Shown: positions 13,109 through 32,989 of the stretch, piece by piece
Position numbering within the stretch: position 1 is the first letter of the stretch
Layout of the letters: each line of letters opens with the position of its first letter
Origin: Escherichia coli
GTDB taxonomy: Bacteria; Pseudomonadota; Gammaproteobacteria; Enterobacterales; Enterobacteriaceae
NCBI RefSeq assembly: GCF_003334385.1
Contig: NZ_QOWN01000020.1
Strand: one strand, 5' to 3'
Length of the DNA: 64,000 bases
Position numbers and translations under genes: made by a program
Notes under the pieces: model-generated
Told to the model about the DNA's origin: nothing
Databases searched by the model: none
The model's input: the letters and a program-made list of their open reading frames with translations, nothing else

Positions 13109-14764
13109 TTAGTCAGATTTAATCTGCGCGCGTGGTGGATATTTTTTCAGGATCTCCATATACGCGTGCATTTCGGTCTGTAGCGGTACACCCATCGGAA
13201 TATGGCGCACGCCGATGGAGTCGCTTTCCTGCGGATCGGTGTAGAGGTTAAACACCGACGATCCCGCCGTTTGCATTACTGTGCCGGTGAATCCACCCTG
13301 ATATCCGCTCTGGGTATAAGCGTAAGGTTGCTGAATCAGGACGTGATACTTGAACTCATCCATACGCACAGCAGCGAGTTTACCGTTGAGGAAGTAGTGC
13401 TCGGCCTTACGGTTAGACTGACCATTTGTTCCCAGGAAGAAGGATGTCTGGTCCACACCATCGATAAAGGTGGTTTTCGGCACTAAATTCGCCACTTTCG
13501 CTCCAGGATGCCCTGCCAGATCCAGCGCGGTAGGGAAGAGATCTGCCAGATCGACAATACCGTCAGATTTACGCGGTTGGATCATCCCTTTCCAGTAAAC
13601 GAAAGTCGGTACGCGAACGCCGCCTTCCCAGGTCGAACCTTTCGCACCACGGAACGGGGTGCGTCCGTGCGGCGGTACTTCGGCTTCCGGTCCGTTATCG
13701 GAGGTAAAGACGATCAGCGTGTTATCAAGCTGACCGTTTTTCTCCAGTGTTTTATACAGATTAGCGAACACATCGTTCATCTCCACCATGCAGTCGCCAT
13801 ACGAGGTGCGTGCCGGAGAGCTACCCGCATATTTAGCGTTCGGGTAGTTATCGAAGTGACAGCCGCGAGTGCCGTAATAGAGGAAGAAAGGCTTATCGCT
13901 CTTCGCCATCTTGTCGAGGAACTTAACGCCATATTCCATCCAGCGTTGATCCAGATCTTCCATATATTTCGGCGTAATGTCGGCAATGGCCTGTTGTTCG
14001 CCGCCGCGCACTGCATGAACATCATCTTTGCTGAACGGTAATTGCTTGATGTATTCAGAACGGTCCGGACTCAGGGCCACTTCCGGATTGACGTGAACGT
14101 CGCGCCATTCGGTGTACATATCAGACACCGAGTTAAAGCCACGGAAATCATCAAAGCCAACGTTCTGCGGCTGCGACTCTTTGTTTTCCCCCATATGCCA
14201 TTTCCCGATAGCCTGGGTGACGTAACCTTGGTCGTGCAGCAATTGCGGCAGGGTGGTTAACCCTTGCAGACCTCCCGGTTGCCCGTACATTGGCGGCATC
14301 AGAATGCCGTGGTGGATGGAGTATTGTCCGGTGAGAATGGTGGCGCGGGTTGGGGAAGAGCTTGGTTGAGAATACGCCGACGTTAAAATCAGCCCCTGGC
14401 TGGCAACTGCATCGATATCTGGTGTAGGGTTACCCACCGCCACGCCGCCACCGTTAAAACCGACGTCCATCCAGCCCACATCGTCCAGCAGGAAGATAAC
14501 CACATTGGGCTTCTTACCGGTTTTTTTCTCAAGTTCTGCCAGCTTCTGCTGGGTTTCTTTATCCTGCGCCGGATGCTGCATTACTGGCATCATGTTGTCG
14601 GCAATAGTGGTCGCCGGTTTAACCAGATACTGGTTTGGGTGATCGTATCCGGCAAAGCCTTTGCGTGCGGTGGCAGTTGACGGGGTATCTGCTGCGCTGG
14701 CCATGAGAGGAAGAGCGGCGGCGACAGCAACAACAAGACGTTTGGGTGAAAACGAAATTTCCAT
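13109..14764 (-). CDS. aslA: arylsulfatase (Ser-type sulfatase, periplasmic)
   Basis: 551-aa ORF with N-terminal signal peptide and a sulfatase signature S-x-P-x-R (SSPTR) with Ser in the formylglycine position. Confidence 0.92.
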
Positions 14765-15188
14765 GCAAAATGCTCCGGTTTCATGTCATCAAAATGATGA
14801 CGTAATTAAGCATTGATAATTGAGATCCCTCTCCCTGACAGGATGATTACATAAATAATAGTGACAAAAATAAATTATTTATTTATCCAGAAAATGAATT
14901 GGAAAATCAGGAGAGCGTTTTCAATCCTACCTCTGGCGCAGTTGATATGTAAGGCAGGTTTATTATATCGCGTTGATTATTGATGCTGTTTTTAGTTTTA
15001 ACGGCAATTAATATATGTGTTATTAATTGAATGAATTTTATCATTCATAATAAGTATGTGTAGGATCAAGCTCAGGTTAAATATTCACTCAGGAAGTTAT
15101 TACTCAGGAAGCAAAGAGGATTACAGAATTATCTCATAACAAGTGTTAAGGGATGTTATTTCCCGATTCTCTGTGGCATAATAAACGA

Positions 15189-15395
15189 GTAGATGCTCAT
15201 TCCATCTCTTATGTTCGCCTTAGTGCCTCATAAACTCCGGAATGACGCAGAGCCGTTTACGGTGCTTATCGTCCACTGACAGATGTCGCTTATGCCTCAT
15301 CAGACACCATGGACACAACGTTGAGTGAAGCACCCACTTGTTGTCATACAGACCTGTTTTAACGCCTGCTCCGTAATAAGAGCAGGCGTTTTTTT
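15189..15395 (+). ncRNA. glmZ: small RNA GlmZ (activator of glmS translation)
   Basis: Sequence recognised as GlmZ (GTAGATGCTCATTCCATCTCTTATG...); ends in hairpin GCCTGCTC-CGTAATAAG-AGCAGGCG plus T7; convergent with hemY. Confidence 0.85.
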
Positions 15396-15442
15396 ATGTG
15401 TCAGGAAGGCCCCGGAGGTGCTTGCCCCCGGGTGAGAAGGAA

Positions 15443-22870: not shown

Positions 22871-23332
22871 TGTTGTATCCTGTTTTTAAGTGATGGCGGC
22901 AGTATAGCGGCATGGGGTCAGGGCTTCAAAGTTTGCACCTCTGCGGCTGCGTTCCGGCACGATTCATCCGTCACCGGAATAATGATGTCTCTGTGTAGCG
23001 AAAGATTTGTCTCTTCATTAGGGCGCAGTTACACCACGTCTTTCCCTGTTTCTGGTAAACATTATGATCAGGTTTACCGAGCGAGCATCCTCACGCTGAC
23101 GGAACTAAAAAAGACAACAAACAAACCACATTGCGATAGTGCATAAAGCCATCCTGGCGCGAGGTGCCGATCACGAAACTACCAGCAAAACATAAATCCC
23201 CACGAGTAAGCGTTATACTCGCAGCATTTCCTCACTTTTCAGACTTCATAAAGAGTCGCTAAACGCTTGCTTTTACGTCTTCTCCTGCGATGATAGAAAG
23301 CAGAAAGCGATGAACTTTACAGGCAATCCATA

Positions 23333-28956: not shown

Positions 28957-28960
28957 CGTT

Positions 28961-29064
28961 GCCGGATGCGGTGCTGCGCACCTTATTTGGCCTAAAAAAT
29001 CATTCAGATTCAATAAATTGCAACGTCATGTAGGCCGGATAGGGCGTTTACGCCGCATCCGGCA
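28961..29064. repeat. BIME/REP element pair with central CAATAAATTGCA motif
   Basis: GCCGGATGCGGTGCTGCGCACCTTATTTGGCC and inverted GTAGGCCGGATAGGGCGTTTACGCCGCATCCGGCA. Confidence 0.85.
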
Positions 29065-29102
29065 TCTGCGCCATCTTCAGTATCTGACACAAAACTATCG
29101 TT

Positions 29103-29867
29103 TTAACCTTTCCGCTCGACGGAAATCATGGTGACAAAAGGATAGCGTTGCCACGGGATTGCCCCGCCTTTCATATACATATGTGAAATCGTGCCATCAA
29201 GATAAAGCAGCTGCTCAACGTTCAGTTTCGCTTTGGCATAACAGGCAAAATCATAAAAATTTGTTGCCTGCTGGCTCAACAAAAACACGGCGTTCCCATG
29301 TTTATTAATCCCAACACCGTTACGAATTTTGCTTGAGGCGACGTTGGGATGAATACGCGGATTAATTACACCGTTTTCCATCAACATTGGCCCTGACTGC
29401 ACCGCAAACTGAATCTCTTTACTGGTTTTGAAGGCATCCAGACGAACGATGCCGACTTTATCTCCCGCGACATAAAACACGCCGCCAGGACGGATAAAGA
29501 AATTCCCTTCACCTGAAGCGAGATTTAACGCCACCTTCTGCTGACCGTTTTCGATGTACAAACCGAGCGGCGCATAGCTTTCATCATAGATGCCGCCGTT
29601 CATCGCCATCTGCACCTGACCCTGACTATTAATATCCGCCAGCAGAGCATGTAACGTTCCCCACGCTTCGCCATTGGCTTTTTGCCAGTACATTTTCACC
29701 CGCTCTGTTTGAGGATTAACGGTATACGCCTGTACGGTCAGCGTCGGATCTGAGAGTGCGCAATCATCAGCGGCAACAGCAAACAAGGGAAGTAAGGTGA
29801 GGGCGAGAAAAATCCGTTTGAGATTCAAGGTGATCATTCCTTTACCAATGAGTAGCTGATGCGCCAT
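29103..29867 (-). CDS. yigE: DUF2233-family secreted protein
   Basis: 254-aa ORF with N-terminal signal peptide; synteny between uvrD and corA. Confidence 0.85.
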   Translation of the reverse strand: MAHQLLIGKGMITLNLKRIFLALTLLPLFAVAADDCALSDPTLTVQAYTVNPQTERVKMYWQKANGEAWGTLHALLADINSQGQVQMAMNGGIYDESYAPLGLYIENGQQKVALNLASGEGNFFIRPGGVFYVAGDKVGIVRLDAFKTSKEIQFAVQSGPMLMENGVINPRIHPNVASSKIRNGVGINKHGNAVFLLSQQATNFYDFACYAKAKLNVEQLLYLDGTISHMYMKGGAIPWQRYPFVTMISVERKG

Positions 29868-30236
29868 TATAGGTCCTGGATGTGGGATTTTTTTATCCTG
29901 TTAGCGACCTTGACGAGTACCAAAAAGCGCGAAGTTCAACTATTGTTCTGTGGTGTTCTGTTGCGTGTTGACGGCAAAATTTTGCTGGCGTAACATGCGC
30001 GCACGATCACTCTAAGAGGACATTCGCCTTGGACACACCCAGTAGATACTGGCTCACTATCCTGTCATCCAGGATCAACTCCTAAGGCTATCCCTTTTTG
30101 CTGATAGCCTTAGCGGTTGTCAGCGACCTCAATTTTTCCCGTCGCGCTGAGTCAGGCTGTTTAATGGTCTGAAACCCAATTTGTTTCTGTGTGCCCACCG
30201 AACTGTCCGATATTTTAAGCATTGGGAGTCCCGGTC

Positions 30237-31187
30237 ATGCTGAGCGCATTTCAACTGGAAAATAACCGACTGACCCGGCTGGAAGTCGAAGAGTCACAAC
30301 CCCTTGTAAATGCAGTATGGATTGATCTTGTCGAACCGGACGACGACGAGCGACTGCGCGTACAATCTGAACTTGGCCAGAGCCTGGCAACCCGCCCGGA
30401 ACTGGAAGACATCGAAGCATCGGCACGTTTCTTTGAAGACGACGACGGCCTGCATATTCACTCCTTCTTCTTCTTTGAAGATGCGGAAGATCACGCCGGT
30501 AACTCCACTGTGGCATTTACCATCCGTGATGGTCGTCTGTTTACTCTGCGTGAGCGTGAACTGCCCGCTTTTCGTCTGTATCGTATGCGTGCCCGTAGCC
30601 AGTCGATGGTAGACGGTAACGCCTACGAGTTGCTGCTGGATCTGTTCGAAACCAAAATCGAACAGTTGGCAGATGAAATTGAAAATATCTATAGCGACCT
30701 GGAGCAGTTGAGCCGGGTGATTATGGAAGGGCATCAGGGCGATGAGTACGACGAGGCGCTCTCCACTCTGGCGGAACTGGAAGATATCGGCTGGAAAGTT
30801 CGCCTGTGTCTGATGGATACCCAGCGCGCGCTCAACTTCCTGGTGCGTAAAGCGCGTTTACCGGGTGGGCAACTGGAGCAGGCGCGTGAAATCCTGCGAG
30901 ATATCGAATCCCTGCTGCCGCATAACGAATCCCTGTTCCAGAAGGTGAACTTCCTGATGCAGGCGGCAATGGGTTTTATCAACATCGAGCAGAACCGCAT
31001 CATCAAAATCTTCTCGGTGGTATCCGTGGTATTCCTGCCGCCGACGCTCGTTGCTTCCAGCTATGGCATGAACTTTGAGTTTATGCCAGAACTGAAGTGG
31101 AGCTTCGGCTACCCTGGCGCGATTATCTTTATGATCCTCGCGGGCCTGGCACCGTATCTGTACTTTAAGCGGAAGAACTGGTTGTAA
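30237..31187 (+). CDS. corA: magnesium/cobalt transporter CorA
   Basis: 316-aa ORF (start [10 protein letters not shown]); C-terminal two TM helices and the signature YGMNF motif. Confidence 0.95.
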
Positions 31188-31198
31188 AAAACGAGAGC

Positions 31199-31223
31199 GG
31201 TGGCTTAGTCTGGCTAAGCCACC
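31199..31223. terminator. hairpin between convergent corA and yigF (probable bidirectional terminator)
   Basis: GGTGGCTTAG-TCTGG-CTAAGCCACC palindrome; T-run on minus strand side, weak T-run on plus side. Confidence 0.55.
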
Positions 31224-31229
31224 TGTTAT

Positions 31230-31610
31230 TCAAAGGCTCCAGGTATTTAACCCTTTTACCTCTTTCTCATAGAACCATTTGTTCGTGTTAACAGCAACAT
31301 AGGCTGCTACGGCAATTCCCAGAATGTTAACGCCAATTAGTGCACCAACAAATAGAGATAGAATACCAAGTAATAGAACTATAATTGCTTTTTTCCATAA
31401 CCCCAGGACAAATAAATATATCCAGGAACAGAAGAAAGCAATGAAATTCATTTGAATAGTTAAGCGTTGTCTTACTTTTAATGCTTTAAATGCTGCTTTA
31501 TATTCTGGTGTTGCCCCCCAGAATCCAGGAAAACCATGTTGATCATAAAAATTAAATCGGTATTTCCATTTTTCACTTAATGAACCATCGTTCATATATT
31601 CCTTACTCAT
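31230..31610 (-). CDS. yigF: small inner membrane protein, DUF2628 family
   Basis: ORF trimmed to MSKEYMNDGSL start (126 aa); two hydrophobic helices; AT-rich codon usage. Confidence 0.7.
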   Translation of the reverse strand: MSKEYMNDGSLSEKWKYRFNFYDQHGFPGFWGATPEYKAAFKALKVRQRLTIQMNFIAFFCSWIYLFVLGLWKKAIIVLLLGILSLFVGALIGVNILGIAVAAYVAVNTNKWFYEKEVKGLNTWSL

Positions 31611-31623
31611 AAATACTCCATAA

Positions 31624-32004
31624 CTATTGTTTTGATGAATCAGTAGGTGCAAGCATTAGCATACTGAAAGTGGAAAAATAACAAATCAAAAAAATCATCG
31701 AACCATTGCCTGAACAGGCAAAATCTTCGGCTATCATTGTGATGATAGAGATGATATATACTGCTAATGTACCAAAAACATAAGTTTTTATATAGATGAA
31801 ACCACTATCACGGAGTCGCTGGCAATTCATGTTGATGACGAGATAATGGAGTACGATGGTAGAGACTATAACAAGAAAGCCTGCTTCTCCATCGTTAAAA
31901 AAGATAATAAGAAAGGCAAAAATGAAATTTATTAAAATAAATGAAAATATATAACGACGTCTGGAAATCTTACCGTTAGATGTTGGGATAAATATACGTA
32001 ACAT
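31624..32004 (-). CDS. yigG: small inner membrane protein of unknown function
   Basis: ORF trimmed to [12 protein letters not shown] start (about 126 aa); hydrophobic; AT-rich; start is uncertain. Confidence 0.65.
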
Positions 32005-32098
32005 AAATTTTACATCCTTGTATGAGTCTCCGGTCAGCATGGCAATATGCCCACTCTCATGCAAGAGTCGGCATATTTTTTCAGAATATATTTATTTT

Positions 32099-32989
32099 TT
32101 ATTTGGACGTTCTACGCTGCGTATAAATCGCATCCATCACAAAAATTGCCAGCGCCACCCAAATAAAGGCGAAAGTCACCATCTTATCGGCACCCGGTTT
32201 TTCACCATAAAACGTCACAGCCAGCAGGAACATCAGCGTCGGGCCAATGTACTGGAAAAAGCCTAACGTTGAGAGACGCAAGCGCGTGGCAGCGGCGGTA
32301 AAACACAACAGCGGTACGGTAGTGACAATACCGGCGGCGATCAGCAGTAAATTCAGCGACATCGGGTTTTGCCCCATATGGCTGGTTGAGCTGTCGGCAA
32401 TAGCAAACAGGTAAATTGCCGCCACGGGCAGCAGCCACATGGTTTCGATTAACATGCCGGTTTGCGCTTCAACGGCAATCTTCTTGCGTACCAGACCGTA
32501 GAAGGCAAAACTAAATGCCAGTCCCAGCGCGATAATAGGTAGCGAACCAAAAGTCCACAGCTGGACTAACACGCCACATATCGCCAGAATCACCGCCAGC
32601 CATTGCATCCGGCGGAATCGCTCGCCGAGGAAAATCATCCCCAGCACAATGTTCACCAGCGGGTTAATAAAGTAACCAAGGCTCGCTTCCAGCATATGGT
32701 GATTGTTCACCGCCCAGATAAACAGTAGCCAGTTGCCACCAATCAGCACGGCAGAGACTGCCAGCATAAAAATTTTCTGTGGCGTCTGAATCAGCGTTTT
32801 TAAATAGGACCACTGGCGGCAAATGCTCATCAGCACCACCATAAAGAAAAACGACCAGATCACGCGATGCGTCAGGATTTCATCGGCGGGCACGTAGTAA
32901 ATCAACTTGAAGTACGCTGGCGCTATACCCCAAATAAAATAAGCGGCAAGAGCGAGTAATACGCCCTGCCGCGTTTGTTTTGCATCCAT
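32099..32989 (-). CDS. rarD: RarD, EamA/DMT-family transporter
   Basis: 296-aa polytopic ORF; DMT superfamily features. Confidence 0.9.
   Translation of the reverse strand: MDAKQTRQGVLLALAAYFIWGIAPAYFKLIYYVPADEILTHRVIWSFFFMVVLMSICRQWSYLKTLIQTPQKIFMLAVSAVLIGGNWLLFIWAVNNHHMLEASLGYFINPLVNIVLGMIFLGERFRRMQWLAVILAICGVLVQLWTFGSLPIIALGLAFSFAFYGLVRKKIAVEAQTGMLIETMWLLPVAAIYLFAIADSSTSHMGQNPMSLNLLLIAAGIVTTVPLLCFTAAATRLRLSTLGFFQYIGPTLMFLLAVTFYGEKPGADKMVTFAFIWVALAIFVMDAIYTQRRTSK

Follow-up and report, generated by a model that had tools for sequence, protein, structure and literature searches.

Why do the core genes corA and rarD of Escherichia coli enclose two small AT-rich genes, yigF and yigG, where did these genes come from, and what might their products do? 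The stretch of DNA analyzed here, which we call the window, is 64 kb long (64,000 nucleotides), and its open reading frames (ORFs) and annotation give the gene order uvrD-yigE-corA-yigF-yigG-rarD-yigI-pldA of a K-12-type E. coli chromosome. A sequence-only reading of this DNA had described an AT-rich islet with a GC content in the mid-30s, a deviant codon composition, and two short hydrophobic proteins of about 126 amino acids each. All of this was borne out. From the corA stop to the rarD stop (31188-32098), the GC content is 34.7% over 911 bp, the minimum of the whole window (z = −5.8 relative to all 911-bp windows of the 64 kb). In 300-bp windows between 31200 and 32100, the GC fraction stays at 0.32 to 0.37, far below the values of about 0.50 to 0.56 in corA and rarD. 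Third codon positions deviate as well, with a GC3 of 0.28 in yigF and 0.32 in yigG versus 0.52 to 0.63 in five neighbors, corA, rarD, yigI, pldA, and yigE. Both products are exactly 126 amino acids long and contain predicted helical membrane segments. The gene names given to the pair and its flanks match the RefSeq annotation, which enters yigF as DUF2628 domain-containing protein and yigG as protein YigG. Of the bounds proposed for the islet, 31230 to 32064, the left end holds; the right end does not, since the longest ORF has its TTG start at 32064 and the annotated ATG start lies at 32004.

The 911-bp gap (GC fraction of 0.347 vs 0.527) is as AT-rich as H-NS-silenced xenogeneic DNA is expected to be, and earlier publications have described the locus as AT-rich, foreign, and silenced (PMC3661553, PMC8282354, PMC7229825). 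The “promoter island” paper depicts the yigF-yigG region in its Figure 1 and counts it among 78 islands, which carry dense promoter-like signals without productive transcripts (PMC3661553). The region has also been displayed as a small silenced extended protein-occupancy domain (EPOD), silent in laboratory culture and heavily occupied by protein (PMC8282354). An H-NS-repressed sense promoter inside yigG serves as an example of spurious transcription driven by AT tracts in horizontally acquired genes (PMC7229825), and a constitutive sigma-70 binding site is listed between yigG and yigF (PMC3946193). Other papers naming yigF or yigG merely list them. The sequence-only reading had rated this the most promising part of the window for finding new functions. 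That is a fair judgment, but a modest one, because so much about the locus has been published. What is new here is the polymorphism of the site, the placement of YigG in the DUF805 superfamily by profile comparison, and the conservation of the pair across genera under purifying selection.

The features of the locus are collected in Table 1. yigG and yigF are almost certainly one transcription unit: in orthologous pairs, the two genes are 13 to 31 nt apart or overlap by 4 nt, a tight spacing that argues for co-transcription. The promoter fragment within yigG, whose activity we take from the published work (PMC7229825), lies in the sense orientation and points toward yigF. The hairpin next to corA is particular to the K-12 cassette type, and a junction alignment shows that the other cassette types carry hairpins of their own. 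The hairpin upstream of yigG folds as RNA with −20.5 kcal/mol (z = −3.25), and five of its base pairs are kept across divergent alleles through changes on both sides. A T-run follows it on the plus strand, and an A-run precedes it on the rarD strand. Since no T-run follows the hairpin on the rarD strand, it is plausible that transcription could continue through it from rarD into yigG. The right junction of the variable region lies inside the last few codons of rarD, so the C-terminal tail of RarD varies by cassette type. A scan of positions 29800 to 32300 against Rfam families gave nothing above chance.

Table 1. Features of the corA-rarD interval and its flanks (positions in the 64-kb window)
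Feature	Position	Strand	Description	Basis
corA	30237..31187	+	Core flank; variable region starts right after the corA stop	ORF, annotation, junction alignment of six locus types
Bidirectional terminator-like hairpin in the corA-yigF gap	31199..31223	both		Terminator scan
yigF	31230..31610	−	126 aa from ATG, GGAG Shine-Dalgarno; DUF2628	
yigG-yigF spacer	31611..31623	−	13 nt; holds the yigF Shine-Dalgarno GGAG	Read from the sequence
yigG	31624..32004	−	126 aa from ATG, four predicted TM helices; assigned to divergent DUF805	
Intragenic-promoter fragment in yigG	31704..31853	−		Primers of PMC7229825, placed by eye on the sequence
Hairpin between rarD stop and yigG start	32044..32077	−	Inverted repeat, 14-bp arms	
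rarD	32099..32989	−	Core flank; stop at 32099-32101	Alignment, RarD translations

We then asked where else the pair is found, using CorA as the query in a synteny scan of 80 Enterobacterales loci, one genome per species. In half of them (40/80), corA and rarD are 35 to 210 bp apart; these loci include Citrobacter, Enterobacter, Klebsiella, Kluyvera, Cedecea, Buttiauxella, Hafnia, Yersinia, and one Escherichia representative. The cassette is thus not a general feature of the Enterobacteriaceae, as the proposal of an insert between corA and rarD had implied. A comparison with Salmonella and Klebsiella had been suggested as a check of that proposal, and its outcome is split: the two core genes are adjacent in Klebsiella, but Salmonella Typhimurium carries the pair at this site, with F and G 84% and 57.6% identical to their K-12 counterparts. 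Besides Salmonella Typhimurium, at least eight species loci have a YigF-like and a YigG-like gene in the same place (Superficieibacter, Intestinirhabdus, Phytobacter, Pseudescherichia, Kosakonia cowanii, Enterobacter sp. Bisph1, and two Mangrovibacter species). In E. albertii, yigF is at the site and the contig stops after it. Serratia, Pantoea, Erwinia, and others fill the corA-rarD gap with a GC-rich gene for an AbrB-type membrane protein. The GC fraction of the gap in pair-carrying loci is 0.37 to 0.48 versus 0.50 to 0.57 in the flanks.

Every G-F pair found occupies the corA-rarD site, and in every species that yielded a G-family gene with an F partner, the two were paired. The YigG subfamily was found solely in the Enterobacteriaceae, at this one chromosomal site, together with a partner gene. 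A link to Mg2+ transport through corA was considered and rejected, as the adjacency tracks the site and not the family. The DUF2628 loci of Pseudomonas and of Pantoea megaplasmids have no DUF805 neighbor, no conserved partner, and no informative neighborhood, and their proteins carry an insertion of roughly 11 residues that is absent from the enterobacterial YigF group.

How, then, did the pair come to this site? One possibility is that it is ancestral to the Enterobacteriaceae, weakly expressed, AT-rich, evolving fast, and often lost, and that no horizontal exchange took place. The restriction of all G-F pairs to a single site speaks for this, and the clean empty sites could be deletions. Nor does the locus carry any sign of mobility: between corA and rarD, the ORFs and annotation of the K-12-type locus include no integrase, transposase, or other mobility gene, and a repeat search of the locus found no direct repeats bracketing the cassette, only short AT-rich repeats at chance level. 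For about 19 kb from the cassette, on the side that the annotation covers, no tRNA is listed. In phage collections, the sole matches were short unannotated “phage” records, and the “plasmid” matches in plasmid collections were chromosome fragments or whole chromosomes with corA and rarD. With no genuine phage or plasmid copies, a mobile vector finds no support. Composition tells against purely vertical descent, since in all carriers the cassette is 10 to 20 GC points below its host.

We examined the site in 5,426 complete E. coli genomes. K-12-type yigFG fills the corA-rarD interval in 2,471 of them. A second yigFG allele, with 70% (F) and 76% (G) protein identity, is present in 565 genomes, including ST131. 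An alternative cassette, found in 1,464 genomes, consists of a 128-amino-acid YigG-like ORF and a divergently oriented gene for a 99-amino-acid orphan protein. Finally, a DUF943-DUF3289 module adjoins corA in 2,649 genomes. The 128-amino-acid ORF matches the YigG model NF008474 with an E value of 5.5e-6, and about 1,460 complete E. coli genomes, among them O157:H7, carry it without an annotation. Comparison rejected the 99-amino-acid protein as a relative of either YigF or DUF805; it is an orphan protein confined to Escherichia and its near relatives. The same 128/99-amino-acid type, with identities of 49% and 58%, was also seen on a Salmonella-like contig, where the toxin module is missing.

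The DUF943-DUF3289 pair has been characterized experimentally as a colicin-M-like toxin that acts in the periplasm and its immunity protein (PMC11148199); the DUF3289 protein of the module here belongs to the YPO3983 family (439 bits). In forms that retain a resident cassette (L001, L005, and L096), DUF943-DUF3289 is followed by a duplicate of the last 147 bp of corA. The resident beside the module is the 128/99-amino-acid cassette in L001 and yigFG in L096. In two other forms (L003 and L004), the module replaces yigF and most of yigG, leaving a 5′ yigG stub. The corA 3′ duplicate differs from the functional corA of the same genome at 8 of 147 positions, 5 of them third-codon positions, as expected of a copy from a diverged functional corA; this speaks against purely vertical inheritance. 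The corA-rarD site is a polymorphic one: E. coli has no fewer than three resident cassette forms there, and the toxin-immunity insertion comes in addition.

The resident alleles are far more diverged than their surroundings. Two E. coli strains have a synonymous divergence of 1.25 in F and 0.70 in G versus 0.17 in corA and rarD, so that the alleles exceed their flanks 4 to 7 times. For two Mangrovibacter species, the value is about 1.6 in the cassette versus 0.34 in the flanks. Judged by protein identity, the histories of F and G disagree as well. K-12 YigF is 87% identical to its counterpart on an Enterobacteriaceae metagenome contig (L093), 84% to that of Salmonella, and 83% to that of Superficieibacter but only 70% to E. 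coli allele 2. YigG ranks its counterparts the other way round, with allele 2 closest at 76%, followed by Salmonella (57%) and Superficieibacter (45%). In alignments of the locus types, identity ends exactly at the corA stop and returns in the last rarD codons, and junctions in such places fit homologous replacement better than site-specific integration. Taken together, the synonymous excess, the discordance of F and G, and the junctions point to a foreign origin with repeated allele replacement and mosaicism within the cassette. A horizontal origin of the yigG-yigF cassette is supported by this comparison. Vertical descent with loss, which fits the fixed position, explains neither the excess nor the discordance, and we regard it as improbable. 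The earlier proposal of an old horizontally acquired insert stands as regards foreign origin; its single old insertion gives way to repeated replacement at a hotspot.

What kind of proteins are YigF and YigG? YigF matches Pfam DUF2628 (PF10947) with an independent E value of 5.2e-10 over residues 17 to 117, covering model positions 9 to 91 of 93. In its alignment, the soluble N-terminal region (KWKxRFxF...G) and the C-terminal tail are conserved, and the LGLWKKA turn is invariant; the protein also has hydrophobic helices. YigG scores 255.6 bits against the NCBIfam equivalog NF008474, above the cutoff of 217. Its wider relationships are less apparent. K-12 YigG reaches Pfam DUF805 (PF05656) only at an E value of 0.023 to 0.038, below significance, and among 13 members of its family, 3 match DUF805 at E ≤ 0.001 and 9 at E ≤ 0.1. 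We built a profile from these 13 proteins of related loci and searched 1.84 billion representative proteins with it. There were 72 matches at E ≤ 1e-3 and 23 at E ≤ 1e-10, which makes the YigG subfamily very small. Of 40 distant matches, 36 carry Pfam DUF805 (best E value, 4.9e-23), and hhalign aligned YigG with DUF805 at a probability of 99.2% and an E value of 7.8e-20, a partly circular result, as the second alignment was retrieved with the first. From these profile-level matches, we assign YigG to DUF805 as a divergent member. Residues R15, R63, R65, D66, and G68 are invariant in alignments of the YigG family, and the SGW that would follow the loop is absent. Paralogy between YigF and YigG was ruled out by BLASTP and by profile-profile comparison, and by these measures the two families are unrelated.

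We modeled the two proteins with AlphaFold as an artificial fusion (YigG, a flexible linker, and YigF), using a 12-row alignment paired by genome. The model has a mean pLDDT of 76.5 and a pTM of 0.66. It contains four helices in YigG, with the RxRDxG loop between helices 2 and 3; the YigF part consists of an N-terminal helical region, a short broken hydrophobic helix, and two long hydrophobic helices. When the fused model was used as the query, Foldseek against AFDB50 returned DUF2628 proteins of many genera with a probability of 1.00 and target-normalized TM-scores of 0.76 to 0.96. These AlphaFold-database matches come from Proteobacteria and Actinobacteria and superpose on the YigF half. In structural matches, each half covers at most 0.44 of the chain; a pTM of 0.66 despite this hints that the halves pack against each other, and the model thereby hints, if only indirectly, at a YigG-YigF heterodimer. 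The structure search found no solved structure resembling YigG or YigF, and the literature on DUF805 and DUF2628 gave nothing functional.

Given a silent and variable locus, it might be asked whether the proteins matter at all. The ORFs could be decaying or spurious and the AT-rich DNA a mere H-NS-bound spacer or terminator between convergent genes, as might be suggested by laboratory silence, promoter-like signals without productive transcripts (PMC3661553, PMC8282354), and frequent interruption or deletion of the locus. The pattern of substitution makes this reading scarcely credible. Both frames are intact and syntenic in at least 10 genera at 20 to 87% identity, both belong to widespread protein families, and invariant motifs are kept. 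The dN/dS of yigF and yigG is 0.05 to 0.34 in all unsaturated comparisons (0.05 to 0.15 for yigF) and stays under 0.5 in all sub-regions that allowed an estimate (6 of 9 in G and 4 of 7 in F, the rest being saturated at synonymous sites). These ratios indicate that both genes are under purifying selection. Constraint on YigF is strongest in the C-terminal tail (0.04), in the N-terminal region (0.11), and in the LGLWKK turn, which shows no non-synonymous change; in YigG, it is strongest in the RxRDxG loop and weakest in the predicted periplasmic turn (pN of 0.53). At the resolution of protein regions, no positive selection was seen.

Many E. coli genomes lack the cassette or carry it broken by insertion sequence (IS) elements, which makes it dispensable; some natural IS insertions hit yigF and leave yigG intact. 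A phenotype has been described in Salmonella, where yigG deletion mutants attached less well to polystyrene, spinach, and tomato and, in the LT2 background, did not grow at 0.14 ppm chlorine (PMC3579871). The effects were modest and complementation was partial, and yigG was reported to be absent from serovar Enteritidis (PMC3579871). We mapped the primers of that study and found that the deletion they produce corresponds precisely to the G orthologue; it may have had a polar effect on yigF. The 82% identity to K-12 given there (PMC3579871) disagrees with the 57.6% found here. Natural and engineered disruptions of single genes are tolerated, but under silencing.

Two tightly coupled genes for small membrane proteins at a variable, H-NS-silenced locus also recall a toxin with its antidote, one hydrophobic protein harming the membrane and the other neutralizing it. 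We consider this very unlikely. The natural IS insertions that break yigF and spare yigG, the deletion forms that keep just a 5′ yigG stub, and the Salmonella yigG deletion with yigF in place all speak against it. Neither family is a known toxin, and Pfam recognized no toxin domain in YigF or YigG. A yigG overexpression clone from the ASKA plasmid collection was a first-round candidate in an overexpression screen (PMC10299036), so yigG overexpression is not grossly lethal.

A broader version of conflict deserves more weight, although on balance we doubt it. YigG-YigF and the YigG-like/99-amino-acid pair would be immunity or exclusion proteins in the membrane, directed against an envelope-targeting toxin or a phage, and their alleles would be held under balancing or frequency-dependent selection. 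Deep trans-species allelic lineages and mosaicism are what such selection might leave behind, three resident cassette forms coexist in E. coli, and in 2,649 genomes the same spot has acquired a colicin-M-like toxin with its immunity protein. Like much conflict cargo, the cassette is AT-rich and H-NS-silenced, and YigG varies most in its predicted periplasmic turn. But dN/dS is well under 1 in all estimable regions, the K-12 form has no adjacent toxin gene, no real phage or plasmid copies exist among those searched, and DUF805 and DUF2628 are widespread as solitary genes. [quoted passage not shown]

The reading we prefer, and think probably correct, is that yigG-yigF is a foreign two-gene cassette whose alleles have been exchanged and that acts as one accessory inner-membrane module. 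This xenogeneic cassette of 0.9 kb, with yigG before yigF, sits between the convergent core genes corA and rarD, its alleles passing among Enterobacteriaceae and its movement probably depending on homologous recombination in the flanking core genes. YigG and YigF may form one small inner-membrane complex with conserved predicted cytoplasmic faces and variable surfaces predicted to face the periplasm or the lipid. We infer that the complex would provide a conditionally expressed accessory function in the envelope, neither Mg2+ transport nor housekeeping. The solitary DUF2628 genes and the 99-amino-acid alternative partner indicate that the F-G partnership is not obligatory for either family.

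An extension of this idea is that corA-rarD is a “compatibility” locus, in which a constant DUF805-type core, YigG or its 128-amino-acid relative, would combine with interchangeable partners, YigF or the 99-amino-acid protein, and balancing selection would maintain the deep allelic lineages for their allele-specific protection against toxins that target the envelope or against phages. We offer this as a speculation that is rather unlikely to be right; if true, a function would for the first time be assigned to DUF805 and DUF2628. Overall, this is an ordinary and largely known xenogeneic islet whose population structure is modestly interesting. That structure supplies a natural allelic series in one defined context, made up of both yigFG alleles, the other cassette type, the deletion forms, and the toxin-immunity insertion, and the series is a handle on the role of the widespread DUF805 and DUF2628 proteins. 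Annotation gains as well: YigG can be labeled as divergent DUF805, and the 128-amino-acid YigG-like gene can be added.

How does the locus compare with known systems? It shares with integrative genomic islands a compositionally foreign cargo, a fixed chromosomal position, and strain-to-strain variation; unlike them, the yigGF cassette is without an integrase, a tRNA, and bracketing repeats. The DUF3289/DUF943 module is a closer parallel, being a two-gene unit on the minus strand of the same corA-rarD interval with a GC content of roughly 30 to 33%. It is, however, unrelated in sequence to YigF and YigG and is an added insertion marked by the 147-bp duplicate of the corA 3′ end; the module is absent from the 64-kb window. 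YigG resembles DUF805 proteins in its N-terminal G-[RK]-x-S-R-x-x-Y, its helix arrangement, and its (K/Q)-R-x-R-D-x-G loop, but it lacks the S-G-W that follows this loop in the consensus of the distant matches. The E. coli paralogues in DUF805 are YhaH and YhaI. YigF matches the DUF2628 model over nearly its full length, and its group differs from the solitary homologues of Pseudomonas and Pantoea in being paired with YigG. With H-NS-silenced islets, promoter islands, and EPODs, the likeness is complete: the yigF-yigG locus is a described member of this class and does not differ from it.

The corA-rarD interval carries different genes in different E. coli strains. Among 5,426 complete E. coli genomes, 2,649 have, directly 3′ of corA, a DUF943 plus DUF3289/YPO3983 module, a pair described as a colicin-M-like toxin and its cognate immunity protein (PMC11148199). 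Strain 138 has this module in the interval equivalent to window 31188-32098. There (L001), and in two further compared loci (L005 and L096), the last 147 bp of corA is duplicated and placed after the module, where it is annotated as "CorA pseudogene". Compared with the functional corA copy of the same genome, it shows 8 differences over the 147 positions, and 5 of these fall at third-codon positions.

Two genes follow in strain 138, a 128-aa ORF and a 99-aa orphan membrane protein gene, which form a divergently oriented pair in E. coli. Judged by its match to the YigG family model NF008474, the 128-aa ORF is a distant YigG/DUF805 relative. It is present in 1,464 of the complete genomes (O157-type and many others), and RefSeq annotation omits it in the E. 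coli carriers. The same two-gene type occurs on a Salmonella-like contig (L102), at 49% and 58% identity.

At the other end of the variable region, the recombination junction lies inside the final rarD codons (window 32099-32115), and therefore the RarD C terminus varies with the cassette: the K-12 protein ends in ...QRRTSK, that of strain 138 in ...QRRKS, and that of the empty-site Escherichia locus L008, as taken from the alignment, in ...QRRTRLGN.

Insertion sequences interrupt the interval in individual strains (L006:1940-2914; L005:4685-5893; hits H1, H27, and H65). ISApl1 interrupts yigF, IS1 is found within both yigFG alleles, and ISVsa5 adjoins rarD, each in individual strains. Since these elements break the interval in single strains, its cargo is dispensable. 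In other species the cargo differs again, as three loci in the table illustrate.

A second junction that varies, uvrD-yigE (window about 28960-29100), lies about 2 kb from the corA-rarD site. A SAM hydrolase/SAM-dependent halogenase family gene lies between uvrD and yigE in strains 138, AGR5151, 2020N21-110-15, and TUM12368, and is absent from the window. The GC content of yigE is 0.478. Salmonella lacks yigE, and there the corA leader comes directly after uvrD. Elsewhere in the window, the sole other stretch with a 911-bp GC content below 0.42 is 14491-15402 (minimum, 0.417), which spans the aslA 5′ end and the long aslA-hemY intergenic region.

Features in the window and in compared loci
Feature	Coordinates	Strand	Context
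DKNYY-family protein gene remnant, frameshifted	window about 22996-23174		between cyaY and lptM; annotation of matching K-12-like genome
ysgD/CorL leader ORF, 18 codons	window about 30029-30085		upstream of corA; RefSeq annotation of matching genomes
SAM hydrolase/SAM-dependent halogenase family gene	L001:240-1142		strain 138
DUF943 + DUF3289/YPO3983 module and corA duplicate	L001:3351-5020		E. coli strain 138
128-aa YigG-like ORF	L001:5045-5431	minus	NF008474 E = 5.5e-6
99-aa orphan membrane protein gene	L001:5647-5946	plus	annotated
CDP-diacylglycerol diphosphatase-like gene	L030:1981-2727		Kosakonia sacchari, corA-rarD gap
4.4-kb insert with several ORFs	L069:6952-11341		Enterobacterales isolate, corA-rarD gap
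LacI-type regulator and enolase-superfamily gene	L100:193-2584		beside G-F pair; one metagenomic lineage

Several of the matching PLSDB "plasmid" records (NZ_CP134663.1, NZ_CP141089.1, NZ_CP047533.1, and NZ_CP019447.1) are whole chromosomes (4.9 Mb) or pieces of roughly 96 kb with the core genes uvrD-corA-rarD-pldA; these records are chromosome segments, mislabelled or misassembled.

The amino acid identity of Salmonella YigG to K-12 YigG has been given as 82% (PMC3579871). By tblastn, the gene deleted by the primers of that study (L097:3527-3985, the Salmonella yigG orthologue) is 57.6% identical to K-12 YigG, and the neighbouring Salmonella YigF is 84% identical to K-12 YigF.
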